Shown here one piece after another: positions 20,113 to 63,068 of a DNA stretch of 64,000 bases. Source of the stretch: Gammaproteobacteria bacterium (lineage in GTDB: Bacteria > Pseudomonadota > Gammaproteobacteria > Eutrophobiales > Eutrophobiaceae); assembly GCA_965116495.1 (NCBI GenBank), contig OZ220696.1, forward strand, positions 3,904,001-3,968,000, in the 5' to 3' direction. The notes under the pieces were generated by a model. It was given only the letters and a program-made list of their open reading frames with translations, did not search any database and had not been told where the DNA came from. The position numbers and the translations under genes are program-made. Each line of letters opens with the position of its first letter. Position 1 is the first letter of the stretch.

Positions 20113-20789
20113 TCCTGCATGTCCCCCTGCATGTCTTCCGGCGCTTCCTTGTCCCAGAGGTAGTAGAAACCGGGCTCGGTGCCCAGTTCCGCGTGCATCT
20201 GGAACCAGGTGTTCTCCGCCAGCAGTTCCGAGACGTTGCTGTCCTCATCTTCTATATCGCCGAAGCTCAGGGCATCGGCGATACAGGAATTCACACAACC
20301 CGGTGTGGCTTCGGGATCGATACCGGGGGTGAGGCCTTTTTCCACACCGGCATCCACCCGGTCGGAACAGAATGTGCATTTCTGCGCCACGCCCATGGTG
20401 CGTTCATCGAATTGAATCGCTTCGGTCTCGGTGGGGATATCGCCGTAGGCGAATTCCGGTTTATCCACCTTATAGCGGGCCTGGTAGGGGCAGGCCACGG
20501 TGCAGTAACTGCAGCCGATGCACAGGTCGTAATCGATGGTGACGATGCCATCCTCCCGTTGCGCCGTGGCGGTACTGGGGCAGACGTGCATGCAGGGCGG
20601 GTCCGCGCAATGCTGGCAGCCCACCGGCATGAACAGGCGTTGCACGTCGGGAAATTCGCCCCATTCGACGTCCAGCACCTTGCGCCATTGCACGCCCGGC
20701 GGGGTGGCGTTGGTGTGTTTGCAGGCGGCGGTGCAGGTCTGGCAGCCGACGCAGCGGTTAAGATCCGCAATCATGACATAGCGCGTCAT
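20109..20789 (-). CDS. padC: 4Fe-4S electron-transfer subunit (PadC/DmsB-like)
   Basis: CVGCQTC, CQHCADPPC..CP, CIGCSYC..CP, KCTFC..C..SC. Confidence 0.8.
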   Translation of the reverse strand: MTRYVMIADLNRCVGCQTCTAACKHTNATPPGVQWRKVLDVEWGEFPDVQRLFMPVGCQHCADPPCMHVCPSTATAQREDGIVTIDYDLCIGCSYCTVACPYQARYKVDKPEFAYGDIPTETEAIQFDERTMGVAQKCTFCSDRVDAGVEKGLTPGIDPEATPGCVNSCIADALSFGDIEDEDSNVSELLAENTWFQMHAELGTEPGFYYLWDKEAPEDMQGDMQE

Positions 20790-20860
20790 AGTCCAGCTCC
20801 CACAACCGCCATACCGGCAAAAGCCGGTATCCAGTTAGTTGGCAAAATACAATCAATCAT
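20786..20860 (-). other. 24-codon REP-derived bridging ORF MIDCILPTNWIPAFAGMAVVGAGL between padB and padC
   Basis: Starts in the padB ATGA and stops in the padC ATGA; flanked by a 15-bp duplication (20786-20800 / 20857-20871); contains a REP hairpin. Confidence 0.65.
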
Positions 20861-51373: not shown

Positions 51374-51451
51374 TCGGGAATAACCCGTATTCTCTCCTGC
51401 TCAATGATTCAGGCTGGGATGCATTCGTGCTAATCTACTGATTGGTGAGAT

Positions 51452-52801
51452 ATGCAGGCTAGCAGTTTGGATGTTATCCAACAGGACATTTTCACGGCCT
51501 ACCGGAAACTGACCCCCGCGTCCGGGGCATACTATCAACGCGCCCGCCAGTCATTGGCCGGTGGCACTACCGGGAATTTACGTTTTTTCCCGCCATATCC
51601 TGTTTATGAAACCGGTGGCCGGGGCGCCAGGGTCACGGATCTGGACGGTAACGAGTACATCGACTGTTTTCTCTGCAACGGTCCTCTTCTGCTGGGCCAT
51701 AATCATCCGGATGTGATCGCCACTATAGCAAGGCACAGCAAAACGGGTCCGCTGGTCGTCAACCCCCCCATCATTGCAGAGGCCGCGGAACTGGTGCAGG
51801 AAACTGTCCCCTGCGCCGAGCGGGTGCGATTCCTGAACAGCGGCACCGAGGCCGTCATTATGGCCGTGCGCTATGCGCGGGCCTTCACCGGCAACAGCAA
51901 GCTCGTTAAATTCTACGGCCACTACCACGGCCAGGCTGACCAGTTCCTGACCGGACTTGGGCCGACCGCTGAACCGTTCGGCGCCGGTGTTCCCGGTGAG
52001 GCGGCAAGCAACACCTTATTGACCGGCTATGGCGATATCGATGCATTGGCAAAACTTATGGAAAACCACGATGACATCGCAGCCGTCATCCTGGATCCGG
52101 CAATGCACGCGGGAGGGTTGTGGGGTAGCAACGGATCATTCCTGCAAGCCGTTAGATCTCTCACGTTGGCGCGTAACATCGTACTCATATTCGATGAAGT
52201 GATTACCGGTTTTCGCCTGGCGCTGGGTGGCGGTCAGGCTTACTACGGCGTGACGCCGGATTTAACCACTCTCGGCAAGGCCCTTGCTGCGGGAGAGAAG
52301 CTGGCCGCGGTTGCAGGTAAAGAGGAAATCATGCGCGTGGTTGATCCCCTGGCGGCTTCCGGTACGCCGCGTGTTTTCCAGTCCGGCACAGGTAACGACG
52401 GTAGCGCGGGCATTGCAGGCGCCATCGGCGCAATCAGGACATACCAGCAACTGAATGAGAGGGGAGAATACAGTCACCTGTTCAATATCGGTGAAGCGCT
52501 GGCCGAAGGTATCCACCAGGCATTTTCGTCCCGGGAGATACCTTGTCATGTGAACCGGTTGGGGCCCATGCTGCAGCTTTTCCTCTCGGCAGAAGAACCC
52601 GGTTTCGAGCGCTTTTCCTTACTGGACATGAAGGTGTTATCACTATTCTTTCTGGCGCTCATTAACGAAGGGGTGATCCTGACATTGCCCACCTCGCACC
52701 ACATTTACCTGTCTTTTATGCATAGCAGCGAGGACATCGACGTCATCATTGACAGGACGAACCTGGTTCTGGATAAATATGATTTCAGATCACTGTTATA
52801 G
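51452..52801 (+). CDS. Class III PLP aminotransferase (GSA-aminomutase-like)
   Basis: DLDGNEYID, NSGTEA, YHG, FDEVITGFR, PDL..LGK. Confidence 0.88.
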   Translation: MQASSLDVIQQDIFTAYRKLTPASGAYYQRARQSLAGGTTGNLRFFPPYPVYETGGRGARVTDLDGNEYIDCFLCNGPLLLGHNHPDVIATIARHSKTGPLVVNPPIIAEAAELVQETVPCAERVRFLNSGTEAVIMAVRYARAFTGNSKLVKFYGHYHGQADQFLTGLGPTAEPFGAGVPGEAASNTLLTGYGDIDALAKLMENHDDIAAVILDPAMHAGGLWGSNGSFLQAVRSLTLARNIVLIFDEVITGFRLALGGGQAYYGVTPDLTTLGKALAAGEKLAAVAGKEEIMRVVDPLAASGTPRVFQSGTGNDGSAGIAGAIGAIRTYQQLNERGEYSHLFNIGEALAEGIHQAFSSREIPCHVNRLGPMLQLFLSAEEPGFERFSLLDMKVLSLFFLALINEGVILTLPTSHHIYLSFMHSSEDIDVIIDRTNLVLDKYDFRSLL

Positions 52802-55122: not shown

Positions 55123-55501
55123 ATGCAGGAATTTGTCAGCAAGGTGGCGCTGGTAACCGGAGCAGGTTCGGGTATTGGGCGCGCCACATCCTTGGGCTTT
55201 GCCAGGTGCGGCGCAAAAGTAGTGGTTGCCGATATCAACCTTTCGGCTGCGGACGATACGGTAAAGATCATCAAATCAGAAGGTGGACAGGCGACGGCGA
55301 TGCAGGTTGATGTGTCCAGTTTGCCCGCCGTCGAGGACATGGTAGCGCAGACTGTTGCCTAAAGCGCTGGAATCCGAGCCCATAGGACGTTTCGGCCAAC
55401 CGGGGGAGGTGGCCAATGCAGTCATCTGGCTCTGCTCCGAGCAGGCCTCCTTTGTCACAGGTCACGCGTTGGCCGTGGACGGTGGTTACGTAGCTCAATA
55501 A
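55123..55501 (+). pseudogene. SDR with large internal deletion
   Basis: N-part TGAGSGIG stops at 55362; C-part [11 protein letters not shown]...VDGGYVAQ* resumes immediately; NNAG and YxxxK missing. Confidence 0.85.
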
Positions 55502-55687
55502 AACACTTTATAATTTGGCGGATGCCTGGTATCACAAATTAAAGATACTATTTTCTCGAAGGTCAATATTGGCTGGAAAGGGTGCGGGTTTTGAGGGATG
55601 GGTAGTTTAACTACAGAGGGCAAGTCCGTCCCGGGATTGCCCGTTGGCCCTCAGAAACATATGTGGGTATAAGTAGAGAAACAATAT

Positions 55688-56090
55688 ATGGCTGTAAATT
55701 TACGGCGCCCCTCAATCAGCACATCTTTCATAGAAAATTTTGATTTTCTAAAGCGGTTCCTGACGCGCTATTTTTCAGAACGGCAGGATATTGAGGATGT
55801 GGTGCAGGAAACCTATTTACGTGCCTACGGCGCCGAGCAGAAAAAAGTCATTGAACATCCCAGGGCATTTCTCTTTCAAATTGCCAAAAACCTGGCCCTG
55901 ACGGAGTTGAAAAAAAGTCCAGACAGATTTACGATTACATTGATGATTACGATTTGCCCCTGGCCATTGGCCAGGATGACCCTGTGCAGGGAGAAGTTGA
56001 GGCAAAGCAGAATATCGGACTCTACTGTGAAGCCGTAGCCGCCCTGCCGGAACAATGTCGACGTGTCTTTCTGTTACGTACACTGATTAA
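55688..56090 (+). pseudogene. ECF (FecI-like) sigma factor, frameshifted and 3'-truncated
   Basis: EDVVQETYLR, AFLFQIAKN; frameshift at A7 (55910-55916), after which LPEQCRRVFLL follows; region-4 HTH replaced by an IS-end remnant. Confidence 0.8.
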
Positions 56091-56091
56091 A

Positions 56092-56278
56092 GGGCGCCTC
56101 TAAAAATTAGAGGCGCCCGTGCAGTGTATGGACGTGCTGCCATTTAATCATGACATTCATCCTGAAGCGTCACCCTTCGGGCAGCCTGTGCTGTACCAAT
56201 CGGCGGTCATGCCGATTGGTCACGCAAGTGATTGAAAATGAAGGAAACGGAAAATCAACATTTTTAGAGGTTCCTTAA
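56092..56278. mobile_element. IS-end-derived MITE/remnant (IS5-like termini)
   Basis: GGCGCCTCTAAAAA (56093) inverted to TTTTTAGAGGTTCC (56261-56274), followed by TTAA; left end is itself a palindrome (56092-56118). Confidence 0.55.
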
Positions 56279-58938: not shown

Positions 58939-59067
58939 ATCTGATTTATAAAATAAGATATTCAACAATTAAATCACGAGAGTCATGTTCTGTCAATGCA
59001 CCCATCGAAACACCATATTCCGCATAAGCTCTTCCGATGGCTTCATTTTCGGTCGCAGGCGCCCGCT

Positions 59068-59335
59068 GGCGCAAAACAGCCTTAAACAGATCAGCAGATA
59101 CACCACTGAAAATTTCGGAGAGCAGCAGAAAAGGAAATATATAAAACTCCTACGAGATAAGATGCGTAGTGCGGCTAAAAGTCCCGATAAGGGCCAAAGG
59201 CGCGGTGAGATCAAAGAGGGCTATCACAGTATCCGGGCAGGAAAGCACCATATTTACTATCGTATTCAAGAAACACATATTGAAATCACCGGCGCGCTGC
59301 ACCAATCGATGGAACCAGACCTGCATCCAACGGGT
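59068..59335 (+). pseudogene. ParE/RelE toxin, 5'-truncated, no antitoxin
   Basis: LKQISRYT.ENFGEQQ..KY, GKHHIYYRI, LHQSM motifs; N-terminal beta strand replaced by a repeat fragment. Confidence 0.7.
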
Positions 59336-60268
59336 CTATGTCGCCTTACCCCTGCGTATACGCCAGCCGTCAAGAAACACGGCAATAATTATCACTCCCC
59401 CCGTTATCAGGCGTTTTGCCGGTTCGGATACGCCTAGCTGCGCCAGTCCGTTCTGTAGTACTGCGACGATCAGGACGCCTGCGAATGCGCCGATAACGGT
59501 GCCGCGACCCCCCATTAAACTTGTGCCGCCGATAACCGCCGCAGCAATTGCAGCCAGTTCCATGCCGGAACCGGCATTCGGATCGGCCGACCCCAGGTAG
59601 GCTGCATTGAATACGCCTCCGAGACCTGCCAGGGCGCCGGACACGGCCAGTACCAGCAGGCGGTAGAGCCTTGTATTGATCCCGGACATGCGCGCTGCAT
59701 TGGCATTGGTGCCCGTGGCGGTGATGTAGCGTCCCAGCACTGTCCTGGTCAAAATAAACTGGCCCGCGATGACCGTCACAAGGGCAATGATTAATGCAAC
59801 GGAAACGCCGGTCCCTGTAATCGGCAACGCGAGTTTCTGGATCGAGGCGCCTATATACATAGTTTGTGAGTTCGTCGTGATATAGGCCAGTCCACGCGCC
59901 ATTTCCAGCATCCCCAGGGTGACGATAAATGAGGGAAGAGAAAGATAGGCCACCAGAATGCCGTTCATGGTGCCGCAGAGAAAACCTGCGCCTATTCCGA
60001 TCAGGCAGGCAGCATACAGGGGAAGGCCCCAGTTGAGCAGCGCCACTCCCACGACCGTGGCGCTGAAACCGAGTACGGAACCAACCGACAAATCGATGCC
60101 CCCGACAATCAGGACAAGCGTCATGCCGACAGTGACGATTGTCAGTGCGGGCAGCTGGTTAAGGATTGTTGTGAGTGTTACGAATGAAAAGAAATTGTCC
60201 GAAGCAAGGCTGAAAAACAGGATCAGCAGGACCAGGGAAACCAGGATAAAGTTTTCTCTAGCCCGCAT
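59336..60268 (-). CDS. rbsC: Ribose-type ABC transporter permease
   Basis: GGIDLSVGS, PSFIVTLG, ELAAIAAAVIGGTSL.GG; ATG supplied by a MITE inverted repeat. Confidence 0.85.
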   Translation of the reverse strand: MRARENFILVSLVLLILFFSLASDNFFSFVTLTTILNQLPALTIVTVGMTLVLIVGGIDLSVGSVLGFSATVVGVALLNWGLPLYAACLIGIGAGFLCGTMNGILVAYLSLPSFIVTLGMLEMARGLAYITTNSQTMYIGASIQKLALPITGTGVSVALIIALVTVIAGQFILTRTVLGRYITATGTNANAARMSGINTRLYRLLVLAVSGALAGLGGVFNAAYLGSADPNAGSGMELAAIAAAVIGGTSLMGGRGTVIGAFAGVLIVAVLQNGLAQLGVSEPAKRLITGGVIIIAVFLDGWRIRRGKAT

Positions 60269-60502
60269 TTCTCACCAGGTGATGCGATGATTACGCCGGA
60301 TTTTTGCCGCCAGCGGGTGCCTGCGACCGAAAGCATAGCAGTAGCTCTGGTTGAGGGAGCACGTGCCCGCTGGCGGCAAAAAGACAAGTAAGGACGCATC
60401 AAGCGCAGTCTGTAATGTTGACATAGTAAAAACATTACCATAGCTTGTTGACAGCAAATAAATATACGATGGCAACAAGCGACCTGGTGAGAAATGCGGG
60501 CT
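60260..60502. mobile_element. 243-bp MITE with perfect 21-bp terminal inverted repeats
   Basis: AGCCCGCATTTCTCACCAGGT (60260-60280) / ACCTGGTGAGAAATGCGGGCT (60482-60502); three internal hairpins. Confidence 0.85.
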
Positions 60503-60562
60503 GTTATGAGTCTTGAAAAACTGGATGTAGTCCATGCCGTAACCGTGTTGGCGCATCTCTGG

Positions 60563-62089
60563 TCAGTGTGTAACGCCTGCAACCCGCGTGGTGAATTCGC
60601 TGAAAGAAGCCGCAAGTATGTCCGCTTCGGACCAGTTATCCCGGTTAAATTCCCTGACGAGTTTCCGGTCCGATAATACAAGTATGCGATCGCTTACCAG
60701 CATGATCTCTTCAATCTCGCTTGATGTGAATAATATGGTTTTCCCCTTGTCCCGCAAATCATGGACGAGGTTGTAGATGGTGTTTTTCGCGCCCACGTCG
60801 ATCCCTCTCGTGGGTTCGTCAAACAGCAATATGTCCGCTTCGCAGTGCAGCCAGCGTGCGATAAGCACTTTCTGTTGATTCCCCCCGCTGAGCTGGTCTA
60901 TATCCTGGCCCAGACCCTGGCATTTAATGTCCAGCGCCCCGGCCAGTTCGTCGCCTGCTTGTTTTTCGCGGCTGTAATCCAGCAGGGTTAATGGTGTCAA
61001 TCCACGTGTAGCGCCCGGGATCATCATATTCGTCAGAATTGAGTGGCCTGAAAATAACCCCATGGACTGCCGGTCTTCACCCAGGTATGCCATCCCTGCC
61101 GTTATTGCCGTGGTCGGGTTCCTGATCCCTGTTTTTCCATGGGCAGTATGCCGAGTGATACTGCCTCCTGCCAGTGGAGTCAAGCCGAACAGTGCATTGA
61201 GTAATTCGCTGCGTCCGGAGCCGGACAGGCCGGAGATACCGATTACTTCCCCTGCGCGGCACGAAAAACTTATTTCATGGGGCAGACCTGCGCTGGTTAT
61301 GCGCTTGACTTCCAGGACAACCGGGCGGCTTGCTGCCGGCGCGGGTGACCTGCTGTTTTGCTGGTGGATATGGCCACTCATATATTCCATGAGCCGCGCC
61401 ACACTCAGAGTCTTTGCCGGCGCGCTCGTTATGATTCGTCCGTCCCTGAGCACCGTGACCGTATCGGATACTTCAAGCACGTCCCGCAACCGGTGGCTGA
61501 TGTATATTACCGATGTGCCTGAATTCGCCACGTCAGTAATGACCTTGTGCAGGTGGGCGGTCTGCGGCGCCGTGAGCGCAGCCGTCGGTTCATCCAGGAT
61601 CAACACCTTGCAATCCATGCAAAGCGCCTTGGCCAGTTCCACCAGTTGGCGTTCGGCAATGCCCAGTGTTTCCGTTCTTGTATCCGGACTGAGATGGTCA
61701 AGACCGACAACCCGGAGCAATGACCGTGCCTGTCGTTCAAGATCCTGTTTCAATATTACGGAACGGTATTGAGGTAATTTCCTCAGCGCGATGTTTTCCG
61801 CGACACTGAGCGTATCAACCAGGCTGAATTCCTGGGTGGCACAGGATATGCCGGCGTTGAACGCATCCCTGGGGCCGGCCGGTTCGTAATCTGTTTCATC
61901 AAGAACGATTTTGCCGCTGTCCTTGTGCAGAAAGCCTGCGAGAATACTGCCCAGGGTTGTTTTGCCGGCGCCGTTTTCGCCTACGACCGCGTGTATTTCG
62001 CCGCGTGCGATGGTCAGGGTGATACCGGTAAGAACGGGCGTTGAAAACGACTTGTTGAGGTTCGAAATACGTAAACGGGCAGATGCCAT
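60563..62089 (-). CDS. rbsA: Ribose-type ABC transporter ATPase
   Basis: GENGAGKT, LDEPT, ISHRL, LSGGNQQK, DEPTRGIDVGAK. Confidence 0.9.
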   Translation of the reverse strand: MASARLRISNLNKSFSTPVLTGITLTIARGEIHAVVGENGAGKTTLGSILAGFLHKDSGKIVLDETDYEPAGPRDAFNAGISCATQEFSLVDTLSVAENIALRKLPQYRSVILKQDLERQARSLLRVVGLDHLSPDTRTETLGIAERQLVELAKALCMDCKVLILDEPTAALTAPQTAHLHKVITDVANSGTSVIYISHRLRDVLEVSDTVTVLRDGRIITSAPAKTLSVARLMEYMSGHIHQQNSRSPAPAASRPVVLEVKRITSAGLPHEISFSCRAGEVIGISGLSGSGRSELLNALFGLTPLAGGSITRHTAHGKTGIRNPTTAITAGMAYLGEDRQSMGLFSGHSILTNMMIPGATRGLTPLTLLDYSREKQAGDELAGALDIKCQGLGQDIDQLSGGNQQKVLIARWLHCEADILLFDEPTRGIDVGAKNTIYNLVHDLRDKGKTILFTSSEIEEIMLVSDRILVLSDRKLVREFNRDNWSEADILAASFSEFTTRVAGVTH

Positions 62090-62096
62090 CTCCCGG

Positions 62097-63068
62097 TTAC
62101 TCTACGGAGACCCTGGTTACCAGGTCCAGGGGGGTAGTTTTATCTGCTATTGTCGAACCGGAAGATAATGCCTCAAGTGCATATTCGATGCCATACACGG
62201 CCAGTAAATCTGCATGCTGATCGATGGTTGCCAGTACTTCTTCTGCCCTGATGAGGTTATGGATTGCGGAAATATTGTCGAAACCGACTATTTTTATCCC
62301 GCCCTTCTTCCCGGCCTGGGCAACAGCCGCCGCGGCGCCCAGGGCCATGTTGTCGTTTGCGCACAGGATGGCCGCCAGGTCAGGATGTTGTACCAGCATG
62401 GCCGCCGTTACCGTCACCGCCAAGGTCTGGTCCCATTGGGCACTCTGTTGCGCCACGATATCCATTCCCGCATCGGTCATTGCCTTGCGCAACCCGGCCG
62501 TACGCCGTTGCGAGTTAAAAGCAGTAGGTACGCCTTCAAGTATGGCGACCTGGTCGCCGGCGTTCAGTTTTGACACAAGGTATTTGCCGACTGTCTCAGC
62601 GCCCTGGAAATTGTCCGGTCCGACAAACGGAATTTCAAGGTCATATTCGCTGAGTACCTTTTTTTCCAGCCGGTTGTCTATATTGATAATGGCAATCCCT
62701 GCGGAATGCGCTCTCGCCAGTGCGGGGACAACCGCCTTGGAGTCAGCCGGTGCGATCACAATGGCGTCCACCCTGGAGGCAATCATCTGGTCGATCAGGG
62801 CAACCTGCTGGGCGAGGTCAACCTCATTCTTTATGCCGTTGATGATCAGGTTGTAACGCTCTTGGTTCGCGGCCTGGTGTGCCTTTGCCCCTTCCGCCAT
62901 GGTGACGAAAAATTCATTTGCGAGGGATTTCATTACCAGCGCAATCACCGGGCGTTCCTTGTCCAGGCTGCCCTGGCCGGCACCCCGGCCTGTCCGTTCA
63001 GGGTCGCCGCAGGAAATGACGACCAATAAGCAAAGTGCCGCCGTTACGGCGCTCTTTGTGTGTTGCAT
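62097..63068 (-). CDS. rbsB: Sugar ABC substrate-binding lipoprotein
   Basis: Lipobox VISC; KSLANEFF, APADS, CANDNMALG, VGFD; ribose specificity inferred from context only. Confidence 0.8.
   Translation of the reverse strand: MQHTKSAVTAALCLLVVISCGDPERTGRGAGQGSLDKERPVIALVMKSLANEFFVTMAEGAKAHQAANQERYNLIINGIKNEVDLAQQVALIDQMIASRVDAIVIAPADSKAVVPALARAHSAGIAIINIDNRLEKKVLSEYDLEIPFVGPDNFQGAETVGKYLVSKLNAGDQVAILEGVPTAFNSQRRTAGLRKAMTDAGMDIVAQQSAQWDQTLAVTVTAAMLVQHPDLAAILCANDNMALGAAAAVAQAGKKGGIKIVGFDNISAIHNLIRAEEVLATIDQHADLLAVYGIEYALEALSSGSTIADKTTPLDLVTRVSVE

Follow-up and report, generated by a model that had tools for sequence, protein, structure and literature searches.

A MITE with IS1380-type ends inside an rbsC-like permease gene probably provides the gene with a new start codon

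The window, by which we mean the whole stretch of 64,000 nucleotides that was analysed, belongs to a gammaproteobacterial genome (G000, the genome under study) and carries the genes of a sugar ABC transporter on its minus strand. An rbsB-like gene for a sugar-binding protein (62097-63068) and an rbsA-like ATPase gene (60563-62089), both intact, lie upstream of a permease gene (59336-60268). The permease gene encodes 310 residues with a PF02653 domain when read from an ATG at 60268, which is located in the terminal inverted repeat (TIR) of an inserted element. Its role in sugar transport is assigned from PF02653, the neighbouring ATPase and binding protein genes and an opposite PfkB kinase gene. 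The original prediction named it rbsC. It is a sugar ABC permease, but it scored 188 bits against the RbsC NCBIfam model, which has a cut-off of 398, and therefore we refer to it only as rbsC-like. No second match to the permease was found in G000. Elsewhere in the window, at 55123-56103, the appearance of the translations alone points to a broken short-chain dehydrogenase-like gene and a sigma-factor-like ORF.

The interval 60260-60502, predicted to be a MITE that entered the permease gene near its 5' end, is delimited by a perfect inverted repeat of 21 nt (60260-60280 and 60482-60502), and we agree with that assignment. The element is short, has TIRs but no transposase gene, is dispersed in multiple copies, and is accompanied by a target duplication and by empty sites. 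The non-coding MITE proper, with IS1380-type ends, spans 60262-60500 and has a length of 239 bp with perfect TIRs of 19 bp; the remaining 4 of the 243 bp are likely one copy of a YTAR target duplication. The permease-facing TIR (60262-60280, minus strand) contains a Shine-Dalgarno (SD)-like GGTGA at 60276-60272, a TGA at 60274-60272 and the new ATG at 60268-60266. The second TIR (60482-60500, plus strand) carries an outward ATG at 60494, which opens a 60-codon ORF only, antisense to the ATPase gene and uncalled as a gene. In a 4-bp duplication model, the target duplication on the permease side is CTAG (60258-60261), and the one on the upstream side (60501-60504) is decayed or non-canonical. 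Between the TIRs lie a long inner hairpin with 39-nt arms that are 77% complementary (60301-60382) and a second one with 18-nt arms (60443-60480). On the strand read by the gene, the element is predicted to fold with -119.7 kcal/mol (z = -10.3; none of 200 shuffles was equally stable). A comparison of 59000-61500 with Rfam gave no matches at E<=1. A 30-bp piece resembling the inner hairpin of the MITE (59047-59076) lies inside a ParE-family ORF (58985-59437) immediately downstream of the permease gene, where it apparently replaces the N-terminus.

Public sequencing runs contain both states of the locus. In contigs from four of the seven public runs (X6, X12, X14 and X18) the site is empty, in frame, and exactly 243 bp shorter, which bears out the expectation that removal of exactly this length would join the two parts of the gene in frame. 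The element is present in the other three runs (X1, X5 and X8), and the contigs of X5 bridge both of its junctions, so that it is not an assembly artefact. The empty sites in the runs read CCAG, not YTAR (window positions 60256-60506, with X6, X8, X12, X14 and X18 compared). On the minus strand of the source genome, the upstream ORF crosses the element and ends at the TGA 60274-60272, and the ATG 60268 follows after 3 nt; the predicted read-through, stop in the far TIR and restart ATG are thus all present in the sequence.

The old start was implied to be the ATG at 60556, and here the comparison with G007, the closest genome (93% protein identity), led to another choice. G007 has no element; it has a GTG at the position of 60535 and no in-frame start at that of 60556, indicating that the ancestral start is the ATG 60535 and that the insertion fell at codon 11/12. 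The ATG 60556 was rejected since it is unconserved in G007; X18 also has indels between the two ATGs. The orphaned 5' end of the permease gene, 11 codons from ATG 60535, forms together with the element a leader ORF of 87 residues (60272-60535), which ends 3 nt upstream of the new ATG; its 94-residue form had no match in Pfam. The first eleven residues of the permease would thereby be replaced by three element-derived ones. A start with MRARE in orthologues lacking the element would have spoken against the insertion, and none of the 16 full-length orthologues begins so. Seven of the 16 begin five residues before the R/K-E-N/H-F motif, suggesting that a short N-terminus is normal in this permease.

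The element belongs to a family that is widespread in the genus. A TIR profile scan of G000 detected 107 ends, comprising 28 pairs of 35-461 bp and, for the remainder, lone TIRs; the profile gave 2 matches on one strand of a shuffled genome, and the low-scoring ends include chance matches. When 22 further genomes of the genus were compared, 20 contained matches to the element, as against none of 18 genomes from other genera. From the relatives, 100 loci were taken from the top matches, which favours intact copies, and 97 copies were resolved (L243, L252 and L310 were dropped because their ends remained unresolved). The 243-bp unit accounts for 83 of the 97. Longer copies contain one to three 72-bp modules at fixed points of this unit; in G000 they are found at 532948, 786797, 1089368, 2696355, 2973662, 3421937, 3435021 and 3892882, some with GCAGAT words. 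The motif GGTGAG-AA-ATG, which had been attributed to each TIR, is indeed on both TIRs of the permease copy, but in the wider family the ATG is found at just 48 of the 107 G000 ends and at 101 of 194 ends in the relatives.

YTAR flanks both sides of 59 copies in the relatives; in 45 of them the two flanks agree fully, and in 14 a single base differs in a way that leaves the arms complementary. Among the agreeing pairs, 14 are non-palindromic. A 4-bp YTAR duplication around a 239-bp element is likely the best fit; a TA duplication, as in IS630 or ERIC, is possible and would likewise remove 243 bp, and 14 other copies are compatible with either model. We set the TA duplication aside because of the 14 identical non-palindromic 4-bp flanks, and because the same is seen in the copies of a related insertion sequence (IS) described below. 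Across the TIRs of 106 copies, 180 of 280 non-majority positions were still complementary between the arms, a figure that pools differences between subfamilies with any correction of one arm by the other. In G011, two or three MITE units stand head to tail and share one target copy (L301, L302, L305 and L309), and an IS1182 copy in G000 adjoins a MITE with a CTAG flank common to both (L108, 2694724-2696814).

A cognate transposase was also sought. At 11 of the 30 IS1380 loci listed for the relatives, we found elements of 1.74-1.78 kb that carry an IS1380-family transposase (NF033539/PF13701) between the same TIRs. The IS1380 TIR differs from that of the permease copy by 1 mismatch in 16 nt, and eight of the 11 copies lie between direct 4-bp flanks of NTAR type. 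IS1380 members of the ISEcp1 type have outward promoters. The MITE, though alike in TIRs and 4-bp flanks, has no transposase; a BLAST search with the element against the 11 IS1380 loci gave no match at E<0.01, only the ends are shared, and we do not regard the interior as derived from the IS by deletion. Mobilisation of the MITE in trans by an IS1380-family transposase is likely, to judge from the shared ends. G000 has no IS1380 element above the family cut-off; it does contain an internally deleted 458-bp IS1380 copy (L360, 4194325-4194782), 92% like L317, a locus in G005 where an IS1380 element occurs in tandem with one target copy shared. The autonomous IS1380 ends exist in ATG and ATC forms, suggesting that the MITE did not invent the ATG, which would be one variant form of the transposase site. 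IS1634 was considered as a partner on account of the same YTAR target, and rejected: its TIRs share only the first three bases, and none of the 30 loci had a profile match at the ends. A REP/REPIN-RAYT origin, which would call for REPs that begin with GTAG around a RAYT gene, was likewise rejected; in most copies TA is preceded by C or T, and no TIR was found near the 3 Y1_Tnp matches in G000.

With gene calls from our own dicodon caller, we then compared the frames in which TIR ends lead into genes of G000. The ATG ends (n=48) fell into frames 0/1/2 in 19/2/2 cases, and the non-ATG ends (n=59) in 8/8/3. When a restart was defined as a frame-0 end with no ATG or GTG within 7 codons, 16 of 48 ATG ends qualified as against 1 of 59 non-ATG ends (p=6e-6). 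The difference was 11/18 versus 1/33 for lone TIRs, and 5/30 versus 0/26 for paired ones (p=0.055). YTAR sites inside genes come in two phases only, at 269:238 in codons 2-16, and the rescuing phase holds 16 of 17 early-gene ATG ends (p=3e-4; 16/18 gives 1.5e-3). The p-values are indicative, since related genomes are not independent. An in-frame bias of the TIR ATG, which the original prediction had asked to be examined across copies, is thus present genome-wide in G000.

The 16 TIR-started genes include leuC, mrcB, pstA, rsmD, holC, pcm, trmB, sdhE and a gene in the window at 51452. In the latter case a lone TIR relic (51440-51460, plus strand), shared with other species, provides the ATG 51452 that opens a class III aminotransferase gene (51452-52801). 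Start-bearing relics common to several species are those of pstA, holC, pcm and this aminotransferase. Five of the 16 genes have intact copies (leuC, sdhE, a potC-like gene, mrcB and the rbsC-like permease), and in all five the first codons of the gene are kept on the far side of the element, matching the N-termini of orthologues. For leuC, 22 of 22 orthologues start at that same codon without a TIR there. Some orthologues have the same M-R-A codons with no TIR upstream (pcm in three genomes, mrcB in G008), and native starts or excision footprints may therefore account for a few of the 16. The 3' ends of genes are affected too: the stop codon lies on the duplicated site at 14 of 107 TIR ends, compared to 3.7% of YTAR sites. 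Two ATC-type TIR relics near gene 5' ends (G000:119689 and 1827337) are apparently read through in frame, a third fate.

In the relatives, where 101 of 194 ends carry the ATG, the plain frame count is unbiased (21 vs 17 for ATG ends and 11 vs 10 for the others), which argues against a simple interpretation. The two groups separate only under the filter for no near start, which retained 20 of 101 ATG ends versus 3 of 93 others. A few ends, at L219, L249, L273 and L295, interrupt genes in the non-rescuing phase. An in-frame start was present on the far side, 2-8 codons up, in 13 of 21 such cases, and the genes with the old start kept upstream include glnS, atpC, holC, prpC, a CdsA-family gene and hldE.

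At the new start of the permease, a duplex energy of -7.4 kcal/mol was calculated for GGTGA with the genome's own 16S tail; about 77% of the 1886 called starts pair more weakly, and the values at the two upstream ATGs are -2.9 and -1.7 kcal/mol. By our own count the aligned spacing between GGTGA and ATG is 14, and the optimum is given as 14 in the passages available (PMC9841429). In the modelled free mRNA both the SD box and the ATG are fully paired, with an opening cost of 34.7 kcal/mol. When a ribosome-sized stretch was forced open, either across the 5' TIR or directly before the SD box, the cost fell to about 0.4, and with an opening in mid-element the SD box and the ATG stayed locked. With the new start predicted to be held shut by the TIR stem, initiation would most likely depend on ribosomes arriving from the old start. 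A stop at -8 to +10 nt from a start is taken as predictive of re-initiation, and 2-nt stop-start gaps cost 5-70%, in the parts of PMC10666635 available to us; the stop of the permease leader, at +3 nt, lies inside this range.

We propose that the element targets and duplicates YTAR sites. When it enters a stop codon (YTAA or YTAG), the duplication would retain the stop. When it enters an xYT-ARx codon junction near a gene 5' end, the TIR ATG would come to lie in frame and add M-R-A or M-R-V. The ATG would be a by-product of the transposase binding site, with host survival filtering for the rescued insertions, and the element may often be deleted later to the start-bearing TIR. At the permease, a ribosome that had started at ATG 60535 would pass through the element and open the stem, then terminate 3 nt upstream of ATG 60268 and re-initiate there. 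Taken as a whole, the best explanation, in which we have considerable confidence, is that a MITE inserted at codon 11/12 and that the permease is likely functional through the SD box and in-frame ATG of the TIR. Use of this ATG, by translational coupling, is the most likely reading of the models. Most likely too, judging from sequence comparison, the TIR supplies the start of the permease and of up to fifteen other genes, as an outcome of host survival and not of demonstrated design.

The original prediction went further and regarded the element as a portable, non-polar restart cassette. The stop, the SD-like box and the in-frame ATG are all in place at the permease, but we find no support for reading them as a design that is general or under selection: of the two in-gene YTAR phases just one is rescued, and about half of the TIRs have no ATG. 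It seems to us improbable that the length, the open frame and the TGA-GAA-ATG have been kept by selection on the element, even if several features would fit. The prevalent 243-bp unit is a multiple of three, as are the 72-bp modules added in longer copies; in one orientation only, the majority sequence can be read in the frame set by the target without a stop as far as the terminal TGA; the spacing of the SD box at the TIR is near optimal; and all four full-length same-orientation rescues in the relatives are open, as is the permease copy. Against this, 41 of 88 copies are open, which equals the neutral expectation of 41.4 +/- 4.6 from random placement of the same changes, and the autonomous IS ends show the same two end variants. 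Read-through to the far TGA occurs in just 4 of the 21 rescued genes of the relatives, while 14 of 21 have the element in the opposite orientation with internal stops; read-through is therefore a trait of the permease copy, not a rule. The padB/padC junction, named as the other case of translation-preserving insertion in the window, has no TIR of the MITE family. At 20789-20857, the junction of a molybdopterin oxidoreductase and a 4Fe-4S subunit gene has a short hairpin between two near-identical SD-ATG stretches and no TIR of the family.

Two other accounts of the permease were weighed. One is that the gene has been knocked out or is nearly silent, a young undecayed pseudogene in which the TIR stem blocks the new start. 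The fold model, with SD box and ATG fully sequestered, is in favour of it, the sugar permease is likely dispensable, and the empty allele in four of seven runs could reflect loss or purging. We nevertheless hold it to be unlikely, as neither the ORF nor the two operon genes upstream are broken and G000 has no second match, and as the same layout is found on glnS, atpC, holC and mrcB, which would hardly tolerate silencing. Over 953 nt, X8, which keeps the element, shows 64 differences from the source, without gaps; third positions account for 26 of the 37 differences listed, with 26 synonymous and 7 conservative codon changes. These may be older or younger than the insertion, given that X8 shares 34 of the 37 listed alleles with the empty-site strains; either one old insertion followed by loss or recombination, or two insertions, would produce this pattern. 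The other account, which we regard as possible though clearly second to coupling, is that ribosomes initiate afresh at the TIR ATG, uncoupled from the old start, on mRNA cleaved within the element by RNase III/E acting on the stem or transcribed from a promoter inside it. The repeat hairpins of Correia and ERIC elements are processed by RNases. Loss of the 5' TIR would halve the opening cost, from 34.7 to 16.0 kcal/mol; lone TIR relics, with no partner arm, are the commonest TIR-started class (11/16); and most rescues in the relatives do without read-through. A search of 60200-60620, which is a weak test, found no sigma-70-like promoter and no terminator, and the 3-nt distance from stop to ATG is what re-initiation would lead one to expect. 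We retain re-initiation by ribosomes from the old start as the preferred reading.

Fusions of MITEs to gene 5' ends are already in print as scattered cases, and the restarts at these genes are a larger-scale version of a known kind of event. The nearest parallel is MITEAba12 of Acinetobacter, also a non-autonomous, IS-derived element with outward start codons in its TIR, of which three copies are reported to provide the neighbouring gene with its first four residues, MQQS (PMC6382973). The available passages on MITEAba12 describe three cases, a relation to ISAba12 and an outward promoter, and contain no ribosome-binding site or frame test; the present family differs in its IS1380-type ends, its near-optimal SD box, the 16 genes in one genome, the old starts, the phase bias and the shared relics. 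Neisseria REP2 and Borrelia IR-A repeats position a ribosome-binding site, together with an ATG, ahead of many genes, and 5' extensions of genes by repeats have been reviewed (PMC3184786, as far as the accessible text goes). The MITE likewise puts both signals in front of genes, but REP2 is described there with a promoter and no TIRs, in contrast to the MITE, which has TIRs and no promoter that we could find, inserts within coding sequence and takes the place of the native start. The Chunjie MITE of Geobacter uraniireducens, compared here by its description in the same partly available review, is 178-235 bp long with 21-bp TIRs and a very stable fold, overlaps genes and, according to its title, inserts in an operon without disturbing it; it has 9-bp direct repeats, as opposed to the 4-bp YTAR of our family. 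ERIC, RUP and Correia are listed in that text (PMC3184786). Our MITE differs from these three in its IS1380-type ends and in its flanks, for which a 4-bp YTAR duplication is the better fit. Hairpin MITEs such as ERIC, RUP and Correia sit at gene boundaries, often over stop codons, give rise to ORF fusions and duplicate TA. Our literature search, which left most subscription papers and supplements outside, found no genome-wide account of TIR-derived starts.

It is tempting to speculate that the IS1380/MITE lineage repairs both gene ends, with stop codons restored by the YTAR duplication and an optimally spaced SD box and ATG by the TIR, and has rewritten the starts of dozens of housekeeping and essential genes in the genus, an idea that we put forward as tentative. 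If true, a hairpin-gated control by a leader ORF would come first, followed, after deletion, by a domesticated 20-bp start site, and a transposase binding site would have become a standard ribosome-binding site of the genus. Our findings indicate that one family may lie behind as many as 16 gene starts in a single genome and behind further ones in sister species, with glnS, atpC, holC and mrcB among the affected genes, and with before-and-after states and a measurable phase bias. For annotation this means that starts with MRA, MRV or MQA in this genus often mark an insertion and not an ancestral N-terminus. The predicted opening of a hairpin-locked start by translation of a leader ORF would represent a control step, and the family as a whole offers a testable case in which mobile DNA is tolerated in core genes and its ends are kept as translation signals.
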